NCBI GenBank assembly: GCA_041649675.1
Contig: JBAZMQ010000003.1
Coordinates: forward strand, 5,335 to 69,334
From: Patescibacteria group bacterium
GTDB lineage: Bacteria > Patescibacteriota > Patescibacteriia > Buchananbacterales > UBA6539
Length of the DNA stretch: 64,000 nucleotides
Reading direction: 5' to 3'
Under the pieces are notes generated by a model, which worked only from the letters and a program-made list of their open reading frames with translations, searched no databases and had not been told where the DNA came from. Numbering within the stretch: the stretch's first letter is position 1; each line of letters begins with the position of its first letter. This document shows, one piece after another, positions 90-59,518 of the stretch. Both the position numbers and the translations under genes were made by a program.

Positions 90-206
90 GAAGTTTCGGG
101 ATAAACTCCGGACTGCCCCGAAGGGATTCTTTCGGGAAAAATTCTGGAGCCTGTCCCGACGAATGTCGGGGTCCCCAGCCTGCCCGCCGAAACGAAGTGT
201 AGGTGG

Positions 207-305: not shown

Positions 306-436
306 GGCTGTGGCTCAGTTTGCGCCAGAGGCACATCCGCCTTTGGCGGAGGCTACCTACCAAAACGACTGTTATATTTTTTAGAATCGTTCAGTCGGGC
401 CGGGAGTGCCTGCTTTGGCCCGTCCGCCTTGACTGT
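306..436 (+). pseudogene. tRNA-Pro-like fragments interrupted by a palindromic element
   Basis: cgggctgtggctcagtt matches the 5' end of the downstream tRNA-Pro (cggggtatggctcagtt). It then diverges into gccagaggcacatccgcctttggcgg. Later gcctgctttggccc resembles the Pro anticodon arm. No complete cloverleaf can be drawn. Confidence 0.4.
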
Positions 437-757: not shown

Positions 758-1034
758 AATTATTGTTTATGTTTTATGTTTATATACTTAAAAGTTTAAC
801 CGATAATAAGCTTTATATTGGTTATAGTAATAATTTGCAAAGGAGACTGAAAGAACATAACTCAGGAAAAAACCTTTCAACAGAATATAGACGGCCTTTA
901 AATTAATATACTATGAGGCTTATTTGTCAATATATGATGCCAAGGCAAGAGAGAAATTTTTTAAAACCGGTTGGGGTAGAAATTACATTAAAAAAAATTT
1001 AAAAAATACTATAAAAATTTAAACAATAATTTGG

Positions 1035-6638: not shown

Positions 6639-8699
6639 ATGAATGTTTCCGAATTAGCCAGAAAATTAAAGACTACAAGCAAAGAGCTGCTAGAAATTTT
6701 ACCAGCAGTCGGTTTTGATATTGGCCGGCGCGCAATTAAAATTGATGATCGCCAGGCCCAAAAAATTGTTGAACGTTGGCCGCAACTTTTAGCCGAATAT
6801 AAATTTAAGTTTAAAACTGAAGAAGAAAAAGAAGCCGAAGAAACCGTAGTCAAAAAAGTTGAAGAGAAAAAATCAGTTTCTATTGGCTCAGTCATTCGGG
6901 TTAAAGATTTTGCCGAGAAATTAAAATTGCCTTTATCAAAAGTGATGGCAGAACTAATGAAAAATGGAGTGCTTTCTTCAATGAATGAGGAAATTGATTT
7001 TGATACGGCTGCGATTGTTGGTTTTCAATTGGGCTTTGAAATAATTTCTGATACGACAACTGTAGCAGAAAACGAAAAAACCACTTCGGAAAAATTGGAA
7101 AGTTTATTAGCCGAAGATGATAAAACTAAATTGAAAGAGCGCGCGCCAGTCGTTGTGGTGATGGGGCATGTTGATCATGGTAAAACTAAATTACTGGATG
7201 CAATTAGAAAAACGGATGTGGTCGCGGGCGAAAGCGGCGGCATTACTCAACACATCGGTGCCTACCAAGTGACAGTTCCGCTAAAGGCGGAATTGTCATC
7301 CCGACCAAAGGGAGGGATCCCTCGCGCGGCTCGGGATGATTTTGCCGCCGGCAAAATCACATTTATTGATACGCCCGGCCATGAGGCTTTTACGACTATG
7401 CGGTCGCGTGGCGCTCGAGTAGCTGATATTGCTATTTTGGTGATTGCGGCCGATGACAGTATTCAGCCTCAAACTAAAGAATCAATTAAAATTATTAATT
7501 CTGTCGGTTTGCCGATGATTGTGGCCATTAATAAAATTGATAAGCCTGATGCTAATATTGAAAAAGTTAAACAAGATTTAGCGGCTTTAAATCTAGTGCC
7601 GGAAGAATGGGGCGGCAAAACCATTTGCGTGCCAATTTCAGCTAAAGCCGGTACGGGTATTGATGATTTATTGGAAATGATTTTATTGGTGGCTGAAACC
7701 GAAAAAGAAAACATTATGGCTAATCCCGATAAATTGGCTGTTGGCACAATTATTGAATCAAGGATTAACCGGGATGAAGGTCCGGTGGCAACAGTTTTGG
7801 TTCAGGCTGGAACTTTGCACCTTGGTGATTTGGTAGAAATTTCGGGCAATTTTTATGGCAAAATTAGAGCTATGAAAAATTATCGGGGTCAAGACGTTTC
7901 TAAGGCTACACCATCAATGCCGGTTAAAATTTTGGGTTTAAAAGCGGCTGCTTCGGTTGGTGATATTTTACAAGTTTCTGACGATTTAGGTAAACGAAAA
8001 AAAATAAAGAAATATCAGCTTAATCAGCAAGCGGTAGATTATTCAAAACCGTTGGAAGTTAATAGCGAAACCAATGCTGAAATGGTTTCTTTAAATTTAA
8101 TTTTACGCGCTGACGTTTTGGGTTCGTTGGAAGCAATTATTGCTTCCTTAAATAAACTTAGTAATTCAGAAGTTTCAATTAACCTTATTGTTAAAGGTTT
8201 GGGCAATATTACCGAGGGTGATATTACACGTGCTGAAGCGAGTAATGCTCTAATTTTAGGCTTTCATGTCAAAGCTACGCAAGCAGCGGAAAATATTGCC
8301 AAAGAAAAAAAAGTAGAAATTAAAACTTACGAAGTTATTTATCATTTATTGGATGAAGTAAAATCCCGTTTGGAAAAGTTATTAGTACCTGAAGTTATAA
8401 AAACTGAATTAGGCCGTCTTAAGGTCTTGGCTATTTTCCGCAAGGAGTCTAATTCAATAATTGTTGGCGGTATGGTCACTAAGGGAGTAATTTTACTAAA
8501 TAGTAAAGCTGATGTTTTGCGCGATAAACGAAAGATTGCTACCGGCCATATTACTCAATTACAAGTGAATAAAGTTGCTGTCAATGAAATGCCTCAAGGC
8601 AAAGAAGGTGGTTTAAAATTTGAAGGTAAACCAGTAGTTTTGCCAGGCGATATTTTAGAAGTTTATCAGGAAGAAGTTAAAGCCAAAAAACTTAAATAA
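6639..8699 (+). CDS. infB: translation initiation factor IF-2
   Basis: G-domain motifs GHVDHGKT, DTPGH and NKIDK are present. The C-terminal domains are collinear with IF-2. The 686-aa length is typical of a short-form IF-2. Confidence 0.95.
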   Translation: MNVSELARKLKTTSKELLEILPAVGFDIGRRAIKIDDRQAQKIVERWPQLLAEYKFKFKTEEEKEAEETVVKKVEEKKSVSIGSVIRVKDFAEKLKLPLSKVMAELMKNGVLSSMNEEIDFDTAAIVGFQLGFEIISDTTTVAENEKTTSEKLESLLAEDDKTKLKERAPVVVVMGHVDHGKTKLLDAIRKTDVVAGESGGITQHIGAYQVTVPLKAELSSRPKGGIPRAARDDFAAGKITFIDTPGHEAFTTMRSRGARVADIAILVIAADDSIQPQTKESIKIINSVGLPMIVAINKIDKPDANIEKVKQDLAALNLVPEEWGGKTICVPISAKAGTGIDDLLEMILLVAETEKENIMANPDKLAVGTIIESRINRDEGPVATVLVQAGTLHLGDLVEISGNFYGKIRAMKNYRGQDVSKATPSMPVKILGLKAAASVGDILQVSDDLGKRKKIKKYQLNQQAVDYSKPLEVNSETNAEMVSLNLILRADVLGSLEAIIASLNKLSNSEVSINLIVKGLGNITEGDITRAEASNALILGFHVKATQAAENIAKEKKVEIKTYEVIYHLLDEVKSRLEKLLVPEVIKTELGRLKVLAIFRKESNSIIVGGMVTKGVILLNSKADVLRDKRKIATGHITQLQVNKVAVNEMPQGKEGGLKFEGKPVVLPGDILEVYQEEVKAKKLK
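7272..7352 (+). repeat. GC-rich palindromic insertion in-frame within the infB G domain
   Basis: About 20 extra residues (PLKAELSSRPKGGIPRAARDDFAA) sit between IGAYQV and ITFIDTPGH, where IF-2 proteins normally have 6-8. The DNA carries ccgctaaaggcgg and a tcatcccga...tcgggatga inverted repeat, both seen in intergenic elements in this window. Confidence 0.5.
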
Positions 8700-13048: not shown

Positions 13049-14575
13049 ATGCAAACAATTTATTGGGCAATCGCGCTTTTTTGTGGTGTCATTGGCGGGA
13101 TTGCTTTTGGTTATCAATTGAGAAAGATCTGGGCGGTAAAGCGCAAAGATACAATTGAGACCAAAGTTGAAAATTTAATCAATGAAGCCAAGGCCAAGCA
13201 AAAAGAAATTTTATTGGCCGCCAACGACAAAGCCTTAAAGATTATTGAAGACGCCAAAGTTGAAGAGCGCCAACGCCAACAGGATTTATTACGGGCGCAG
13301 AAGCGCTTGGAAAGCCGCGAATCACTTTTTGATCAAAAGTTATTGGAATTAGAAAATAAAAAACAGGAACTTTTGGAAAAAGCCGAACGGATTGATAAGA
13401 TCAAATCTGAGATTGGTAAAATTAAAGAAGAGCAAATGGCCAAGCTGGAAAAGATTGCCGGTTTGACCCAAGAAGAGGCCAAAAAGGTTTTATTAGACAA
13501 TACCGAACGCGATATTAAAGATGATTTAGTGGTTAGAATTAAAAAATTAACCAATCAAGCCAGCGAGGAATTGGACAAAAAGGCCAAAGAAATTTTGTCC
13601 TTGGCCATTCAACGCTGTGCGGTTTCCCATGCCACTGAAAGCACCACTACGACCATTGATTTGCCTTCTGACGAAATGAAGGGCCGCATCATCGGCCGTG
13701 AAGGCAGAAATATTAGAACGGTTGAGCGCTTAACCGGTGTAGAAATTATTGTTGATGATACGCCTCAAGCCATTACTATTTCGGGTTTTTCGCCGATTAG
13801 ACGGCAAGTGGCCAAGCGAGCATTGGAAAAATTGATTTTGGATGGCCGGATTCACCCGGTAAAAATTGAAGAAGCAATTAACAATGCCAAGAAAGAAATC
13901 GCTACCGAAATTAAAGAAGCCGGTGAAAATACTTTGTATGAATTGGGTATTACTGGTGTTGATCCAAAATTAGTTCAGATTTTAGGCCGCTTAAAATACC
14001 GTACCAGTTACGGCCAAAATATTTTGCAGCACTCAATTGAAATTGCTAATCTGGCAGCGTTATTAGCCGAAGATTTAGGTGCCGATGTGGCCATTGCCAA
14101 AAAAGGTGGATTATTCCATGATATTGGTAAAGCCGTTGACCATGAAGTTCAAGGCAGCCATCCGGAAATTGGTTATGACATTTTGAAAAAATTTGGCATG
14201 CCTGAAGAAATTGCTTATATTGCCCGGGGTCATCATGAAGATAGTCCAAAGACTTTGGAAGCAATTATTGTTAAAGTGGCTGATGCCATTTCCGGTGCTC
14301 GGCCAGGCGCTAGAAAAGATACTTATGAACAATACCTCCAACGGTTGGATGAATTGGAAAAAGTGGCCACCAGTTTTGCCGGTGTGGAAAAATCTTATGC
14401 CATTCAGGCCGGTCGGGAAATTCGCGTCTTTGTTATGCCCGAAGAAATTGATGATTTAGCGGCTTTGAAATTAGCCAAAGAAATTGCTAAAAAAATTGAA
14501 GCGGAATTACGCTATCCCGGTGAAATTAAAGTCACCGTTATTAGAGAAACTCGGATAATTGAATACGCCAGATAA
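13049..14575 (+). CDS. rny: ribonuclease Y
   Basis: N-terminal TM helix, coiled coil, KH domain (GRIIGREGRNIRTVERLTGVEIIVDD), HD domain (LFHDIGKA...H). Length 508 aa. Confidence 0.9.
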   Translation: MQTIYWAIALFCGVIGGIAFGYQLRKIWAVKRKDTIETKVENLINEAKAKQKEILLAANDKALKIIEDAKVEERQRQQDLLRAQKRLESRESLFDQKLLELENKKQELLEKAERIDKIKSEIGKIKEEQMAKLEKIAGLTQEEAKKVLLDNTERDIKDDLVVRIKKLTNQASEELDKKAKEILSLAIQRCAVSHATESTTTTIDLPSDEMKGRIIGREGRNIRTVERLTGVEIIVDDTPQAITISGFSPIRRQVAKRALEKLILDGRIHPVKIEEAINNAKKEIATEIKEAGENTLYELGITGVDPKLVQILGRLKYRTSYGQNILQHSIEIANLAALLAEDLGADVAIAKKGGLFHDIGKAVDHEVQGSHPEIGYDILKKFGMPEEIAYIARGHHEDSPKTLEAIIVKVADAISGARPGARKDTYEQYLQRLDELEKVATSFAGVEKSYAIQAGREIRVFVMPEEIDDLAALKLAKEIAKKIEAELRYPGEIKVTVIRETRIIEYAR

Positions 14576-19920: not shown

Positions 19921-20012
19921 GTTAGTTAGCTTGTAGCTTGTCCCGACTCTTTAGTCGGGATTCCGAATTTACATCGGGATAGCTTGTAGCTTGTAGGTAA
20001 TGTTGTATTAAA
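19921..20012. repeat. tagcttgtagcttgt direct repeats flanking cccgac hairpins
   Basis: gttagcttgtagcttgt-cccgactctttagtcggga-ttccgaatttacatcggga-tagcttgtagcttgtagg between rnc and nusB. Confidence 0.6.
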
Positions 20013-37677: not shown

Positions 37678-38040
37678 TTAAATTTTAAGCTTGTTTATTA
37701 AAGAATTCAACATTTTCATTACTTCCAATAAAATACTGCCGACTTCCGAATAGTCAAGATATTTGCCGAAAGGCAATTGTTTTGTTATCTCTAATTGAGC
37801 TTCTAGTTCAGCTCCCGACCCAAAAGCATGTAAAAGAAAAACCCGATAGTTCTTTTGGCTGCCTCGAGCCTTGCCCTCAGCAATATTTGAGGGAATTGAA
37901 ACAGCGGCTCTTCTCATTTGAGCTGATAGACCATAAACTTCCGAAGACGGGAATTTTTCTGTTAGTTTGTATATGGCAATAACCAACTTAATTGATTTTT
38001 GCCAGACAATCAAATCTCGATAATTTGTGATTTGCGCCAT
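37678..38040 (-). CDS. four helix bundle protein (TIGR02436 family), paralog of 14685-15047
   Basis: DLIVWQKSIKLVIAIYKLTEKFP...VYGLSAQMRRAAVSIPSNIAEG. Confidence 0.8.
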   Translation of the reverse strand: MAQITNYRDLIVWQKSIKLVIAIYKLTEKFPSSEVYGLSAQMRRAAVSIPSNIAEGKARGSQKNYRVFLLHAFGSGAELEAQLEITKQLPFGKYLDYSEVGSILLEVMKMLNSLINKLKI

Positions 38041-43563: not shown

Positions 43564-43662
43564 GCTAGAATAAAAAAGACTTTTCAATAAATAGAACCCC
43601 GTCTAAAACTCAAAATTATTTGATTTAAAAGTTTTGAGCGATGTCGGCAAGAGACTTTTATC

Positions 43663-43728
43663 CCGCCATATGCTCCTGTAGCTTCCGCCAAAGGCGGATC
43701 CGCCTTTGGCCCCTCACCATGCCTCTGA
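43663..43728. repeat. left arm of the nested inverted repeats enclosing tRNA-Arg(CCT)
   Basis: Outer IR ccgccatatgctcctg matches caggagcgtatggcgg at 43891-43906. Hairpin gccaaaggcgg-at-ccgcctttggc at 43687-43710. Inner IR cctttggcccctcaccatgcc matches ggcatggtgaggggccaaagg just 3' of the tRNA. Confidence 0.75.
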
Positions 43729-43800
43729 GCCCCTGTAGTTCAAAGGATAGAACAAGAGACTCCTAAGCTCTGGATGGAGGTTCGATTCCTCCCGGGGGCA
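43729..43800 (+). tRNA. tRNA-Arg (anticodon CCT)
   Basis: Acceptor gcccctg/cgggggc, D-arm gttc-aaaggata-gaac, anticodon loop ctCCTaa (4 bp stem plus one mismatch), T-arm ggagg-ttcgatt-cctcc. Confidence 0.7.
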
Positions 43801-43909
43801 TGGTGAGGGGCCAAAGGACATATAATAAGTTTCCCGACGTAAAATCGGGATCCCAATTCCGCTATAGGCAGACATCGGGACAACTCCTACCAGGAGCGTA
43901 TGGCGGGGT

Positions 43910-43948
43910 CTAAGCTCTGGATGGAGGTTAGATTTCCTCCTAAGGGCA
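43910..43948 (+). repeat. partial copy of tRNA-Arg(CCT), anticodon loop through T-arm (ctaagctctggatggaggttagatttcctcc)
   Basis: Near-identical to tRNA positions 33-64, with substitutions in the T-loop and the acceptor 3' strand. 110 nt downstream of the intact gene. Confidence 0.75.
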
Positions 43949-43986
43949 AGTAAACAAATATTAATGATAAACTCGCCATTACCCTT

Positions 43987-44057
43987 GGGCCTATGGTCCA
44001 GTGGTACGACGCCACATTCGCATTGTGGAGACGGCAGTTCGATTCTGCCTAGGTCCA
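43987..44057 (+). tRNA. tRNA-Ala (anticodon CGC)
   Basis: Acceptor gggccta/taggtcc with the G3:U70 Ala identity pair, anticodon stem ccaca/tgtgg with loop ttCGCat, T-arm ggcag-ttcgatt-ctgcc. Confidence 0.7.
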
Positions 44058-44096
44058 GAGGTAATGGCAGGTATAAGAAGTTTTTTATTGATTCAC

Positions 44097-44690: not shown

Positions 44691-44826
44691 TTTATTACTT
44701 TTTTGACAAGCCTTGAAGTTGATTATATAATACATTCATTATTTAAAGTTATTTAGTATTAATATGGGCTCTTAGCCTGTTCATTATAATTTGAAAATTT
44801 AAATATTACCGCATACTAACACCAAT

Positions 44827-44900
44827 GGGCCCTTAGCTCAGTTGGCTAGAGCGCTTCCATGGCATGGAAGAGGCCAAGGGTTCAAATCCCTTAGGGTCCA
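44827..44900 (+). tRNA. tRNA-Ala (anticodon GGC)
   Basis: Acceptor gggccct/agggtcc with G3:U70, D-arm agctcagttggctagagc, anticodon stem cttcc/ggaag with loop atGGCat, T-arm ggg-ttcaaat-ccc. Confidence 0.8.
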
Positions 44901-44968
44901 TTGGCGTTGGTAGGCGGTGAAGGGAGTCACCCGAACGTAATATCGGATTTGGACTCACCAAAATATCT

Positions 44969-45253
44969 ATGAGTTACTATGTTTATTTTTTGAAAAGCAT
45001 AAAGAATAATAAAATCTATACAGGATACACTAAAATAGACCCAATTTTAAGAATTAAACAACACAACCAGGGAACGGATAAATGGACTAAAGAAAATGGT
45101 CCATTTTTGTTGTTATATTATGAAAAATATTGTTGTAAAAAAGATGCTATTTTGAGAGAAAAATTTTATAAAACAGGTATTGGCAGAAGAATTCACAATG
45201 CAATAATTAGCTCAGTTTCCGCCAAAGGCGGACCCGCCTTTGGCGGGGGCTAG
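44969..45253 (+). CDS. GIY-YIG nuclease-domain protein (UPF0213 / YhbQ-like)
   Basis: YVYFLKS..NKIYTGYT....R...HN.G is the GIY-YIG signature. 94 aa. The last 11 codons (SAKGGPAFGGG) read through the ccgccaaaggcgg palindrome. Confidence 0.7.
   Translation: MSYYVYFLKSIKNNKIYTGYTKIDPILRIKQHNQGTDKWTKENGPFLLLYYEKYCCKKDAILREKFYKTGIGRRIHNAIISSVSAKGGPAFGGG
45219..45246. repeat. palindromic hairpin ccgccaaaggcgg-ac-ccgcctttggcgg
   Basis: 13-bp stem with a 2-nt loop. Same family as 43687-43710 and 337-349. Confidence 0.8.
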
Positions 45254-45332
45254 AGCGCTTCCATGGCATGGAAGAGGCCAAGGGTTCTCAGCCAGAGGCT
45301 GATGCGCCTTTGGCGCAAAATTCCTTAGGGTC
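45250..45332 (+). pseudogene. partial tRNA-Ala(GGC) copy (D-stem 3' side through 3' end) with a 30-nt insertion in the T-loop
   Basis: ctagagcgcttccatggcatggaagaggccaagggttc is identical to the intact gene, then tcagccagaggctgatgcgcctttggcgcaaaatt, then ccttagggtcca. The 5' acceptor/D segment is replaced by the palindrome. Confidence 0.75.
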
Positions 45333-45822
45333 CACCAAAAATAATGTTTCACAAGAAACATTATTTTTGTTTTGGCTATATAATTACTCCCCCTGTTTTA
45401 AATTCAGTTACTTGGGGGGGGGGCGGCTTGTAAAACAAAAAAATAGGGTAGAAGTTTTAAGCTTACTACCCCTGTCAACTAATTGTATCATCCATGATCC
45501 GTACGGGACGTTGACGCGCCCTTGAGCCGTAGCTCAACTGTTGTTTTCCTTTTTTACCGCCTTTAGCAAGCAGTGTTGATCAGAAATAGATATTGGGAAA
45601 CGGGGTCCCCGTTGAAGAGAGATAGGCACCGGCTTAACTTATAAAAAGGAGGTTGTGGGAAGTTTTCTGGGGTGAACAACAGCTATTACCGATGGTATTC
45701 TAGACAAGGATCGGGGCATCTGCCCTTGTGCTTACCACTTCCGCAGACCAGAAAACTTTTTGCAGATGCTTACGCTCCTATTTTACCAAAAAAATGAAAA
45801 ATTTAGAATATACAATTAAGTT

Positions 45823-47634: not shown

Positions 47635-48450
47635 TTAGATAGTTTTTAAAAAAGAGGCGGTATCTTTAGGATTAACTTTAATTTTTTTACATAGCGGCCA
47701 AACCAATTCAAATTGTGATTTGATCAATTCAGTAAAATCACGACTGGTTACGGTAAAGCCAAAACTCTCTTGGCGCGAAGAAATAAAAGCGACTTTATCG
47801 GCATAGGCCCAAAGACCCATGTTCCAACTCATGCCTTTGGGTGAGAGCCGAATCTCGCGGTGAAATTCTTTACTTACGCCCAAAAAGGGATATTGTTTGA
47901 ATTTGACGGCTTTGTCCGGCGGCCAAATCGTTCGCAAATAAATTTTTTTACGAATCCTTTTTTTATTATGTTCAGCCAGCCAGTCTTTGCCTAAAACTTC
48001 AATCATTTCCGAAATTGGCCAGATGCAAAGTGTCACAATATTTTCATACCATAAAATATCATTAATCGCGCGCCGAATTCCCTCTTGGCCGCTGAAAAAT
48101 TTTATCTTGGGCTCCAAGTAATTTATTTGTTTTGAAAGCGTGGGAATAATTTCATCCAGTTCTTTTTTTTGTTTCTGTAGATTTTCAATTCTATCTTTAA
48201 CTAGGAAGGTTAAGTTTTTAGCATCAGTCACTCGAAATAATTTTTTATTATCCTGCGACTGCTCGCTGACCAAACCCAAGCTAATTAAAATTTTTAAATT
48301 ATCATAAACTGACGGGCGGGGGATATTGAGATTTTCCGCGAGCTGGCGCGCCGATGAAGTTCCGGTTTCGAGCAAACGTAAATAAATGCGGCTGGTGGTG
48401 TCGGACAAGTTTAGATTTTTAAGAATGTCTTTAAACATACTTTTTGTCAT
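47635..48450 (-). CDS. TrmB-family transcriptional regulator
   Basis: RIYLRLLETGTSSARQLAENLNIPRPSVYDNLKILISLGLV. Confidence 0.75.
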   Translation of the reverse strand: MTKSMFKDILKNLNLSDTTSRIYLRLLETGTSSARQLAENLNIPRPSVYDNLKILISLGLVSEQSQDNKKLFRVTDAKNLTFLVKDRIENLQKQKKELDEIIPTLSKQINYLEPKIKFFSGQEGIRRAINDILWYENIVTLCIWPISEMIEVLGKDWLAEHNKKRIRKKIYLRTIWPPDKAVKFKQYPFLGVSKEFHREIRLSPKGMSWNMGLWAYADKVAFISSRQESFGFTVTSRDFTELIKSQFELVWPLCKKIKVNPKDTASFLKTI

Positions 48451-48453
48451 TCT

Positions 48454-48556
48454 GAATCCCGCGAAGCGGGATGAAGAATCTCTAATTAATTAAGTGGTTA
48501 AATGAGATTCTTCGTCCCGACGTGTCGTCGGGACTCAGAATGACATTTACATTTAG
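48454..48556. repeat. about 100-bp complex palindrome in the divergent promoter region
   Basis: Arm gtcattctgaatcccgcgaagcgggatgaagaatctc pairs with gagattcttcgtcccgacgtgtcgtcgggactcagaatgac. Each arm carries its own cccgNcg...cNcggg hairpin. A partial copy (tgtcattctgagggaataaagaat) lies at 17078-17105. Confidence 0.75.
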
Positions 48557-48695
48557 TATCAATCTAGCATAGTTGTCGGTTTTCGTCAACAGATTGACAG
48601 TTTTTGATTAAAGTGATAATTTAAAGCGTTTACCGTGGTGGTAAATATAAACGAAACAAACAAGGTCTGAACCTTGAAAATTAAGGAGAATTGCC

Positions 48696-59290: not shown

Positions 59291-59518
59291 ACAGAGTCAT
59301 TTCGAGGTCGCCTTAAGTGAGATTGAGAGGCGACCGAGAAATCCCATCATAGTTAACAATATGAAACCAAAAATATTTTATATCTATATTATGATGAATA
59401 AATGGAACACTACTTCCTAATTTTAAAGATTTAGCAAAAGATTGGGTATGATGAGATTTCTCCCCCTAATAATTCAATTAATAAGCTCGGGGTCGAAATG
59501 ACAAAAAAATAAATAGTT

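Follow-up and report, generated by a model that had tools for sequence, protein, structure and literature searches.

The 64-kb stretch of DNA analysed here (the window, to which positions refer unless a locus is named) comes from a patescibacterium that, judged by the source names of its best protein matches, is close to Candidatus Buchananbacteria, and it carries a composite palindrome of about 100 bp in the leader of a gene for a TrmB-like regulator. We placed the start of this gene at 48438 because most homologues of its product are 267 residues long, which leaves 6 nt between the ATG and the palindrome that lies upstream of it. Farther upstream a promoter-like site is overlapped by one palindrome and followed by another, and the genes on the divergent side encode a small membrane protein together with a secreted-type protein of 350 aa that is conserved. 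An earlier reading made from the letters alone (the sequence-only reading) had recognized the composite palindrome, although at 48454–48556 rather than at its actual position, 48445–48545, and had grouped it with other small hairpins of the window into a lineage-specific family resembling repetitive extragenic palindromic (REP) sequences, suggesting that this copy might double as an operator next to a GC-rich gene island. The supposed island is syntenic in relatives, and, as described below, only part of the remaining proposal held.

The element consists of two units in inverted orientation, with their GTC tags facing outward (Table 1). On the + strand the left unit comprises TGTCATTCTGA, a 17-nt hairpin (ATCCCGC-GAA-GCGGGAT) and GAAGAATCTC, followed by the spacer and then by the right unit, which comprises GAGATTCTTC, a 21-nt hairpin (GTCCCGACG-TGT-CGTCGGGAC) and TCAGAATGACA; read on the − strand, the right unit is GTCATTCTGA, then GTCCCGACG ACA CGTCGGGAC, then GAAGAATCTC. 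The outer 10-mers of the two arms are perfectly complementary, as are the inner ones, whereas the two internal hairpins are unlike in sequence and length and are each self-complementary. Each arm closes on itself by pairing of ATTCT with AGAAT, which enclose a GA/GA internal loop and a variable tip, so that the arm has 5 bp, the internal loop and a tip of 7–9 bp. A constrained DNA fold of the left unit has this shape, (((((..(((((((...)))))))..))))), at −9.4 kcal/mol; the right unit folds as DNA at −12.9 kcal/mol, and the whole element as RNA at −58.6 and −56.2 kcal/mol for the two strands (z about −10). The repeat unit thus runs GTC, a palindrome that starts and ends in AT, C; two such units, unlike each other, make up the 100-bp element as an inverted dimer. 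The window contains four GTCAT-hairpin-ATC units, compared with 0.05 expected: both arms within 48446–48544, the left arm of a second element (59296–59343) and a unit within infB (7295–7358). A search of the 64-kb window with up to three mismatches found no other copy of the arm subfamily of 48445–48545. The idea that all the hairpins form one family did not survive: by its arms the 100-bp element is single-copy, and its true relative in the window, 59296–59502, had not been listed.

To place the element in its locus we compared the leader with those of loci whose regulators are 77–84% identical to that of the window. Of 11 orthologous loci, 10 conserve the core formed by the promoter and its palindrome and one has a variant, and this core is likely to be the real operator and promoter; the second palindrome is present in all orthologous loci inspected. 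Because the composite palindrome lies downstream of the −10 box, it is probably within the transcribed leader, or 5′ untranslated region (5′ UTR), of the TrmB-like gene. The stretch from the −10 box to the ATG is highly variable among orthologous loci. Some have 10–35 nt there and no insert (L130, L133, L006/7), others a short or ~200-nt AT-rich palindromic insert at the same spot (L132, L004/5, L131, L134), and a GTCAT-type element is confined to the window, its duplicate L001 and L002/L003; in L002/L003 the arms are retained and the internal segments and spacer are wholly different. The absence of the element from most orthologous leaders identifies it as an insertion, and the variable, unrelated inserts of the relatives identify the leader as a permissive landing site. 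A metagenome scan with the TrmB protein gave no more than 3 loci.

The inserts that fill the TrmB leader in L004 (9850–9995), L131, L132 and L134 belong to a different AT-rich palindromic family, of the aaatccaaaattacaaat and ggaatttgtaatttg types. A sequence similar to these repeats occurs in the window at 241–290, between tRNA-Phe and a tRNA-Pro-like copy.

We then scanned one genome per species with the exact 30-nt arm pattern, leaving the internal segments free, and recovered identical arm sequences in at least 120 contigs from ~20 phylum-level groups, which contradicts the claim that the family is lineage-specific. The matches listed come from Acidobacteriota, Chloroflexota, Bacteroidota, Planctomycetota, Ignavibacteria, Cyanobacteria/Melainabacteria, Saccharimonadales, Omnitrophota, Nitrospirae, several proteobacterial classes, Helicobacter, Bacillota, Deinococcota and others. 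Of 125 elements, 107 also have the outer right arm, which lay outside the search pattern, allowing for one mismatch at most. Between GTCATTCTGA and GAAGAATCTC the commonest sequence is GCGAAGC, the alternative being a longer hairpin, and the elements are found in either orientation whatever the gene context. The ends of the tips pair with each other far more than those of shuffled sequences do (2.04 and 0.38 closing pairs, respectively), and spacers range from 5 to 33 nt. Subfamilies covary within the arm, with ATTCT/AGAAT in one and ATTTC/GAAAT in another, the latter being the GTCATTTCGA...GAGAAATC subfamily, and in still others GTCAT and ATC are kept around unrelated hairpins. What is conserved is thus the structure and not the sequence of the tip. 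The tag is mostly TGTC, as in the window, with CGTC in some members (for example L017, L020, L032, L095 and L111), and several other genomes carry 2–3 loci each.

Clustering of the genes that neighbour 125 elements yielded no recurrent gene, and hence no cis-linked protein at those loci. Neither the plasmid nor the phage collections gave a blastn match, and only 5 contigs of IMG/VR contain the element, which gives no indication of a phage or plasmid as its vehicle. At Rfam gathering thresholds tRNAs alone pass in the window, and at E values up to 1 four members of the family matched no family beyond sub-threshold hits to RF02901 and to microRNA hairpin models; a literature search by sequence and peptide strings returned nothing useful.

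Several individual loci merit mention. Segments of L010 (6482–6635) and L011 (749–834) resemble RF02901, an Aggregatibacter small RNA (sRNA), below threshold (E ~1e-6), and this sRNA may contain such a repeat. Sequences like TTTTTCCGCAGCCTGTTAAG stand ~10 nt outside the dimer on both sides, inverted, in Acidobacteriota and some other phyla (L010, L011, L012, L018, L028, L029, L048, L097, L117 and others), from which it follows that the repeated unit is larger at those loci. In a metagenome-assembled genome (MAG) of a planctomycete, L070 (1651–1674) has a canonical Neisseria-type unit, TGTCATTCCCGCGTAGGCGGGAATCC, that fits the published pattern discussed below, and the same MAG carries the GTCATTCTGA subfamily.

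The oriented hairpins recall repeats whose partner is Ssn, a GIY-YIG nuclease of ~95 aa with a single domain, for which we rely throughout on Chenal et al. (Nat Commun 2025, PMC11893778). The Neisseria repeat NTS has the consensus CGTCAT-TCCCGCG-MAV-GCGGGA-ATC-YRG, and NTS and "Ssn-related motifs" (SRM) flank ssnA, which encodes a 94-aa single-domain GIY-YIG protein (Y6/Y17/E64) of the single-strand-specific Ssn family (cd10448). As shown for four proteobacterial homologues, Ssn binds the hairpin exclusively in single-stranded, forward-oriented DNA, and its cut falls a few nucleotides to the 5′ side of the GTC tag; in Neisseria, cutting depends on the three bases that precede the palindrome and binding on the C that follows it. 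The ssn gene is typically bracketed by repeats, and the NTS-ssnA-NTS layout has been called IS-like (resembling an insertion sequence). The units of the window are semi-palindromes of 35 and 39 nt, within the 20–50 nt of the hairpin-forming SRM and NTS, and both arms read GTC-ATTCT...AGAAT-C, with the GTC(AT) 5′ of the palindrome and the C directly 3′ of it; the left tip, TCCCGCG-AA-GCGGGA, has the same core as NTS. Unlike NTS and SRM, they have a stem with an additional 5 bp and a GA/GA internal loop, and they form a tight inverted dimer. Their occurrence in Patescibacteria also sets them apart, since this group has no mention in the main text of that study, and whereas Ssn and NTS have been characterized biochemically, the subfamily described here is known from its sequence alone.

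This class was already described, under the name of CGTC-tagged REPs, by Di Nocera et al. (BMC Genomics 2013, PMC3733652), and it includes dRS3 of Neisseria and the Rickettsia palindromic elements (RPEs) RPE-4 and RPE-6. Their stems start with complementary AT residues and have a short tail, 8–9 bp and a loop of 4–5 nt; dimers predominate, with variable spacers, and fold either separately or as one large stem-loop; and copies in frame inside genes add 20–30 residues. They were reported from 5 phyla, Patescibacteria not among them, with no dedicated enzyme found and as not flanking RAYT genes (PMC3733652). The AT...AT start of the stem, the short tail, the dimers with variable spacers and the in-frame copies (compare the 22-codon insert in infB, below) all recur in the family studied here.

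The link to the nuclease comes from related loci. In L002 an intact small GIY-YIG gene is followed by a complete dimer, in L140, from a Ca. Buchananbacteria genome, an ssn-type gene has dimers on both sides, and in L145 such a gene is bracketed by one unit per side, so that the arrangement repeat-ssn-repeat known from Neisseria is seen in these three; the window holds a relic of it, and the 48445 copy is gene-less. The proteins themselves record the repeats. Among the best 120 of 5,838 homologues, 21 end in D[PAS]ETSS[GAE], which is the translated right arm (GAT-NCTGAAACAAGTTCAGN′-ATGAC, in which ATGAC supplies the stop codon), and 3 start with (L)CHPELVSGS, the translated left arm TGTCATCCTGAACTTGTTTCAGGATCT. 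The tails also report covariation in the stem, with DPETSSG, DAETSSA and DSETSSE corresponding to C-G, G-C and T-A at one stem position. The 96-aa protein P0121, an Ssn homologue of Buchananbacteria that has PF01541 as its only domain, shares 46% identity with the gonococcal SsnA orthologue along 99% of its length (E 2e-20); that orthologue is a 94-aa open reading frame (ORF) with Y6/Y17/E64 and an NTS on both sides, and the spacing of the catalytic Tyr/Tyr/Glu is the same in the two; in size, single-domain organization and homology P0121 is thus what a partner protein of the Ssn family should be. Searches of NCBIfam and PDB sequences did not name the Ssn family.

Within the window, the second element of the superfamily, at 59296–59502, belongs to the GTCATTTCGA...GAGAAATC subfamily and encloses a centre of ~110 nt in which an ATG followed by MKPKIFYIYIMMNKWNTTS begins 17 nt past the left unit, and in which PNFKDLAKDWV ends in a TGA that abuts the right unit. 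The N-terminal piece is the best non-genic match in the window to an Ssn profile (positions 3–17, E 0.55), the C-terminal piece matches positions 86–95 (E 34), and the order and strand of the two are right. Because this element encloses both ends of a deleted ssn gene, it supports the view that gene-less dimers are deletion derivatives.

Together, these comparisons make it very probable that 48445–48545 is an inverted dimer of Ssn-partner hairpin repeats, of the class that includes NTS/dRS3, SRM and CGTC REPs, inserted in the leader of the TrmB-like gene. The element adds an ordinary member, unlisted until now, to a repeat class already known, and the description "REP-like" was apt: its two arms are oriented hairpins of the CGTC-REP and SRM class, joined as an inverted dimer. 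Gene-less dimers would be deletion derivatives or trans-dependent copies of repeat-ssn-repeat cassettes, and we infer that deletion is how they arose. The copy studied here probably landed in the AT-rich TrmB leader, between the conserved promoter and operator and the ATG, from which 6 nt separate it, and there it would be tolerated as a passenger, probably without a dedicated function, adding at most a very stable hairpin to the 5′ UTR. The arms are putative substrates of the Ssn of this lineage. In each strand of the dimer the 5′ unit is the forward one, so that on either strand Ssn would cut close outside the element when the DNA is single-stranded; such cutting may drive copying of the element or may only trim recombination substrates.

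A number of observations weigh against this assignment. The published degenerate SRM pattern, HGTCWYN(0-2)YYVSBRHN(0-5)WNVSBRGN(0-2)RNCYNB, has 0 matches in the window and fits neither arm; the canonical pan-bacterial arm fails as well, while the NTS consensus, used as a positive control, matches. The failure arises because a stem extension of 6–7 nt sits between the tag and the GC core. Compared with CGTC REPs, the stem is longer and interrupted (5 bp, a 2×2 internal loop and 7–9 bp), the loop has 3 nt and the tips vary, so that the arms of 48445–48545 fall outside the 8–9 bp and 4–5 nt of that class, and the tag is mostly TGTC. The matches of the ssn remnant are weak singly, the 64-kb window has no intact ssn gene, and a GIY-YIG profile run over 8-kb loci around 120 short elements found none, with the consequence that dependence of the gene-less elements on the nuclease is deduced from the architecture seen elsewhere. 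Copy number is stated for the ~64–100 kb of the source genome that was seen. We found neither a target-site duplication, which the sequence-only reading had proposed to look for, nor a clean empty site at the nucleotide level, and the distance from element to ATG differs between L002 and the window, which allows for either one old insertion or two.

The two regulatory explanations both start from the position of the element. As a long inverted repeat adjoining the start of a winged-helix regulator gene, it could be the operator of that regulator, autoregulatory or shared by the divergent promoters, but most orthologous loci lack it despite regulators that are 77–82% identical, the −35 and −10 boxes and the two other palindromes that adjoin it (~48561–48598 and 48629–48645) are what those loci conserve (the core in 10 of 11, one variant), and the same element lies beside unrelated genes in many phyla with no recurrent neighbour; we therefore regard an operator as highly improbable. 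Downstream of a predicted −10 box, and hence probably transcribed, it could instead act as a structured RNA, either as a cis-acting switch of translation or stability in the 5′ UTR or as a free-standing small RNA, and its very stable fold on either strand fits this, as does the weak, sub-threshold RF02901 match, which suggests that such repeats are transcribed. Such a role is nonetheless very unlikely: the element scores below the gathering threshold of every Rfam family, neither its orientation nor its gene context is fixed, orthologous leaders do without it, and the substrate of Ssn is DNA and not RNA (PMC11893778); any effect on expression would be a by-product of the insertion. A bidirectional terminator was dropped, as there is no T-tract and the element lies between promoter and ATG. 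We also considered and dropped a four-way-junction tRNA-like RNA, an attC site and IS200/IS605 ends.

Mobile or domesticated repeats offer other explanations. An inverted doublet of imperfect palindromes with a short spacer is the REPIN layout as outlined in PMC3116915, and like the REPIN/RAYT system (Bertels and Rainey 2011) the elements form long hairpins dispersed in intergenic DNA and, in the cassettes, flank a single-copy enzyme gene with the same units. We nevertheless give almost no credence to mobilization by a RAYT, that is, an IS200/IS605-type tyrosine transposase: the tag is (C/T)GTC and not GTAG, the clustering of neighbours around the 125 elements revealed no Y1 transposase, the flanked gene encodes a GIY-YIG nuclease, CGTC REPs have been reported not to flank RAYT genes (PMC3733652), and units near-identical across phyla contrast with species-specific REPINs. 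The elements can also be compared with IS-derived deletion MITEs (miniature inverted-repeat transposable elements), in that 59296–59502 retains both ends together with first and last codons and 48445–48545 consists of ends alone; unlike MITEs, these elements show no target-site duplication and no transposase, and Ssn cassettes are without a demonstrated mobility mechanism. Alternatively, the repeat might have been domesticated so that, with Ssn, it limits recombination of incoming single-stranded DNA near particular genes, a role already suggested in Neisseria, its position then being under selection. In Neisseria, NTS and SsnA reduce transformation by NTS-bearing DNA and NTS cluster near membrane-protein genes (PMC11893778), and the divergent neighbours here, a membrane protein and a secreted-type one, would suit such a role; but the locus has a single copy and no cluster, unrelated palindromes at the same leader position in relatives point to a permissive site and not a selected one, and the sole ssn sequence seen in the window is a relic. 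We consider domestication rather unlikely.

If the composite palindrome is a repeat of the Ssn-partner class, annotation should label it as a repeat insertion in a leader and not as a regulatory site, and the operator should be sought in the adjoining conserved palindromes. More broadly, the subfamily GTCATTCTGA...GAAGAATC is very widespread and usually forms tight inverted dimers that the published SRM pattern misses, and because it escapes that pattern yet spans Patescibacteria and ~20 other phylum-level groups, current censuses under-count. Finally, a cassette in relatives, a cassette with a gutted gene and a gene-less dimer form a deletion series that supports a MITE-like origin of dimers, which PMC11893778 had put forward as no more than a hypothesis.

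Table 1. Positions of the features of the window, beginning with the composite palindrome and its surroundings.
Feature	Position	Strand	Description
Whole element	48445-48545	.	Inverted dimer of two GTCAT-hairpin-ATC units, GTC tags outward (TGTCAT...ATGACA)
Left unit	48446-48482	+	GTCATTCTGA-ATCCCGCGAAGCGGGAT-GAAGAATCTC; GTC, ATTCT-GA-(ATCCCGC GAA GCGGGAT)-GA-AGAAT, CTC
Spacer	48483-48503	.	21 nt, AT-rich, separates both units
Right unit	48504-48544	-	Reverse complement of GTCATTCTGA-GTCCCGACGACACGTCGGGAC-GAAGAATCTC
TrmB-like regulator gene	47635-48438	-	267 aa; PF01978
Promoter-like site	48561-48589	-	Sigma-70-like, TTGACG-17-TAGATT
Palindrome GTCAATCTGTTGAC	48585-48598		Overlaps promoter-like site (joint span 48561-48598, -)
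Second palindrome	48629-48645	.	TTTACC-N-GGTAAA; divergent region
Second superfamily element	59296-59502	.	Left unit 59296-59343, right unit 59453-59502
ssn (GIY-YIG) remnant	59361-59451	+	N-terminal codons MKPKIFYIYIMMNKWNTTS, C-terminal PNFKDLAKDWV
In-frame hairpin insertion in infB	7276-7358	+	~22 codons; TTCCGC-TAAAG-GCGGAA, then GTCAT-CCCGA...TCGGG-ATGA, then TGATTTTGCC-GCC-GGCAAAATCA
Hairpin	155-170	+	GTCCCGAC-GAAT-GTCGGG; same stretch as partial tRNA-Phe 3′ copy (168-230)
Hairpin	19941-19960	+	TCCCGACT-CTTT-AGTCGGGA; in 38-bp unit flanked by perfect 15-bp direct repeats TAGCTTGTAGCTTGT
Composite hairpin	43832-43880	+	TTTCCCGA..TCGGGATCCC..TCGGGACAACTCC; downstream of tRNA-Arg; homologous to T-loop-position insert in L134
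30-nt double-hairpin module (CCGCC type)	321-350	+	D-loop position of tRNA-Pro-like copy, after CAGTT
30-nt double-hairpin module	43684-43713	+	tRNA-Arg-like 5′ fragment, after GTAGCT
30-nt module	45218-45247	+	D-loop position of decayed tRNA-Ala(GGC) copy, after CAGTT
30-nt module	45288-45317	+	T-loop position of the same decayed copy, after GGTTC
Partial tRNA copies	90-230; 301-430; 43660-43715; 43880-43945; ~1040-1060; 45196-45345
UPF0213-type GIY-YIG gene	44969-45253		Between intact tRNA and its decayed copy
UPF0213-type pseudogene	~770-1000		Between intact tRNA and decayed copy; looks frameshifted

The unit inside infB lies in frame, like the RPEs of Rickettsia, and extends that phenomenon to an ultra-small-genome lineage. 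Between GAYQV and ITFIDTPGH the protein of the window has 34 residues, compared with 12 in 104 of 116 homologues, and P0275, the translation initiation factor IF2 homologue of a relative, has a 37-residue insert at the same point with the same VTVP start, so the insertion may be old, kept in frame and common to the relative. The two simple hairpins that the sequence-only reading had placed here are in fact a nested, imperfect CCCGA...TCGGG at 7300–7335, preceded by GTCAT, and TTCCGC-TAAAG-GCGGAA at 7276–7292 instead of a CCGCC-type palindrome at 7283–7295.

The short motifs of the sequence-only reading are real and far more frequent than chance predicts, although several of its coordinates are loose and three of its sites are no more than similar to the motif. 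CCCGAC-N3-10-GTCGGG has three exact copies (155–170, 19942–19959 and 48516–48532; 0.01 expected), and CCGCCWWWGGCGG has four (at 337, 43685, 45219 and 45234; 0.01 expected). Two other proposed sites had to be redrawn: that at 43838–43860 is TCCCGA/TCGGGA at 43832–43850, and that at 45309–45322 is TGCGCC-TTT-GGCGCA at 45303–45317. The reported association with tRNAs is confined to the small hairpins and does not extend to the 100-bp element: of 11 small hairpins, 7 are no farther than 500 nt from a tRNA gene, a zone that makes up ~9% of the window, and they occur inside partial tRNA copies.

Each CCGCC-type palindrome is half of a 30-nt module that comprises two 15-nt hairpins, the second being roughly the reverse complement of the first, with compensatory changes that preserve each stem. 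All four modules occupy loop positions of partial tRNA-gene copies. The module at 45288–45317 is identical at 28 of 30 positions in L134, where it lies within a far more diverged tRNA-Ala-like fragment, and a T-loop-position insert of L134 has TCCCGA...TCGGGA and TCCCGAC...GTCGGGA hairpins. The neighbours of the tRNA copies include intact tRNAs and small GIY-YIG genes of a type other than ssn, which are UPF0213-like (E 4e-8 to PDB entry 1ZG2). The CCGCC-type and several of the TCCCGA(C) hairpins sit together and differ from the main element. Whether they constitute a second, undescribed hairpin system apart from the Ssn repeats, either a tRNA-homing pair of nuclease and hairpin or a functional tRNA-like element with engineered loops, is a speculative possibility to which we attach some, but limited, weight.

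Partial copies of neighbouring tRNA genes (Phe, Pro, Arg, Gly and Ala) adjoin the intact genes, and most of them have GC-rich hairpins exactly at the D-loop, the T-loop or a stem/loop junction. The motif TGCCCGCCGAA(A)CG..TAGG(C/T)GGG occurs twice, at 181–209 and 665–687; one copy lies at the T-stem/T-loop junction of the tRNA-Phe copy, and the other overlaps the 5′ end of the intact tRNA-Gly. The intact tRNAs Arg-CCT (43711–43818), Ala-CGC (43969–44070) and Ala-GGC (44808–44925) stand within leader/trailer inverted repeats of 9–20 nt that prolong the acceptor stem (for example CCTTTGGCCCCTCACCAT...ATGGTGAGGGGCCAAAGG). In L004, the UPF0213-type gene at 13096–13350 has 16-bp terminal inverted repeats, CCCTCACCTGAAAAGT, and lies within the 5′ end of tRNA-Ala(GGC), where 12 nt are duplicated. 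At 19927–19994, the 38-bp unit CCCGACTCTTTAGTCGGG-ATTCCGAATTTACATCGGGA between the TAGCTTGTAGCTTGT repeats could reflect a target duplication or a slipped tandem. A gene for a four-helix-bundle "23S rRNA intervening sequence protein" (PF05635) lies at 37678–38040.

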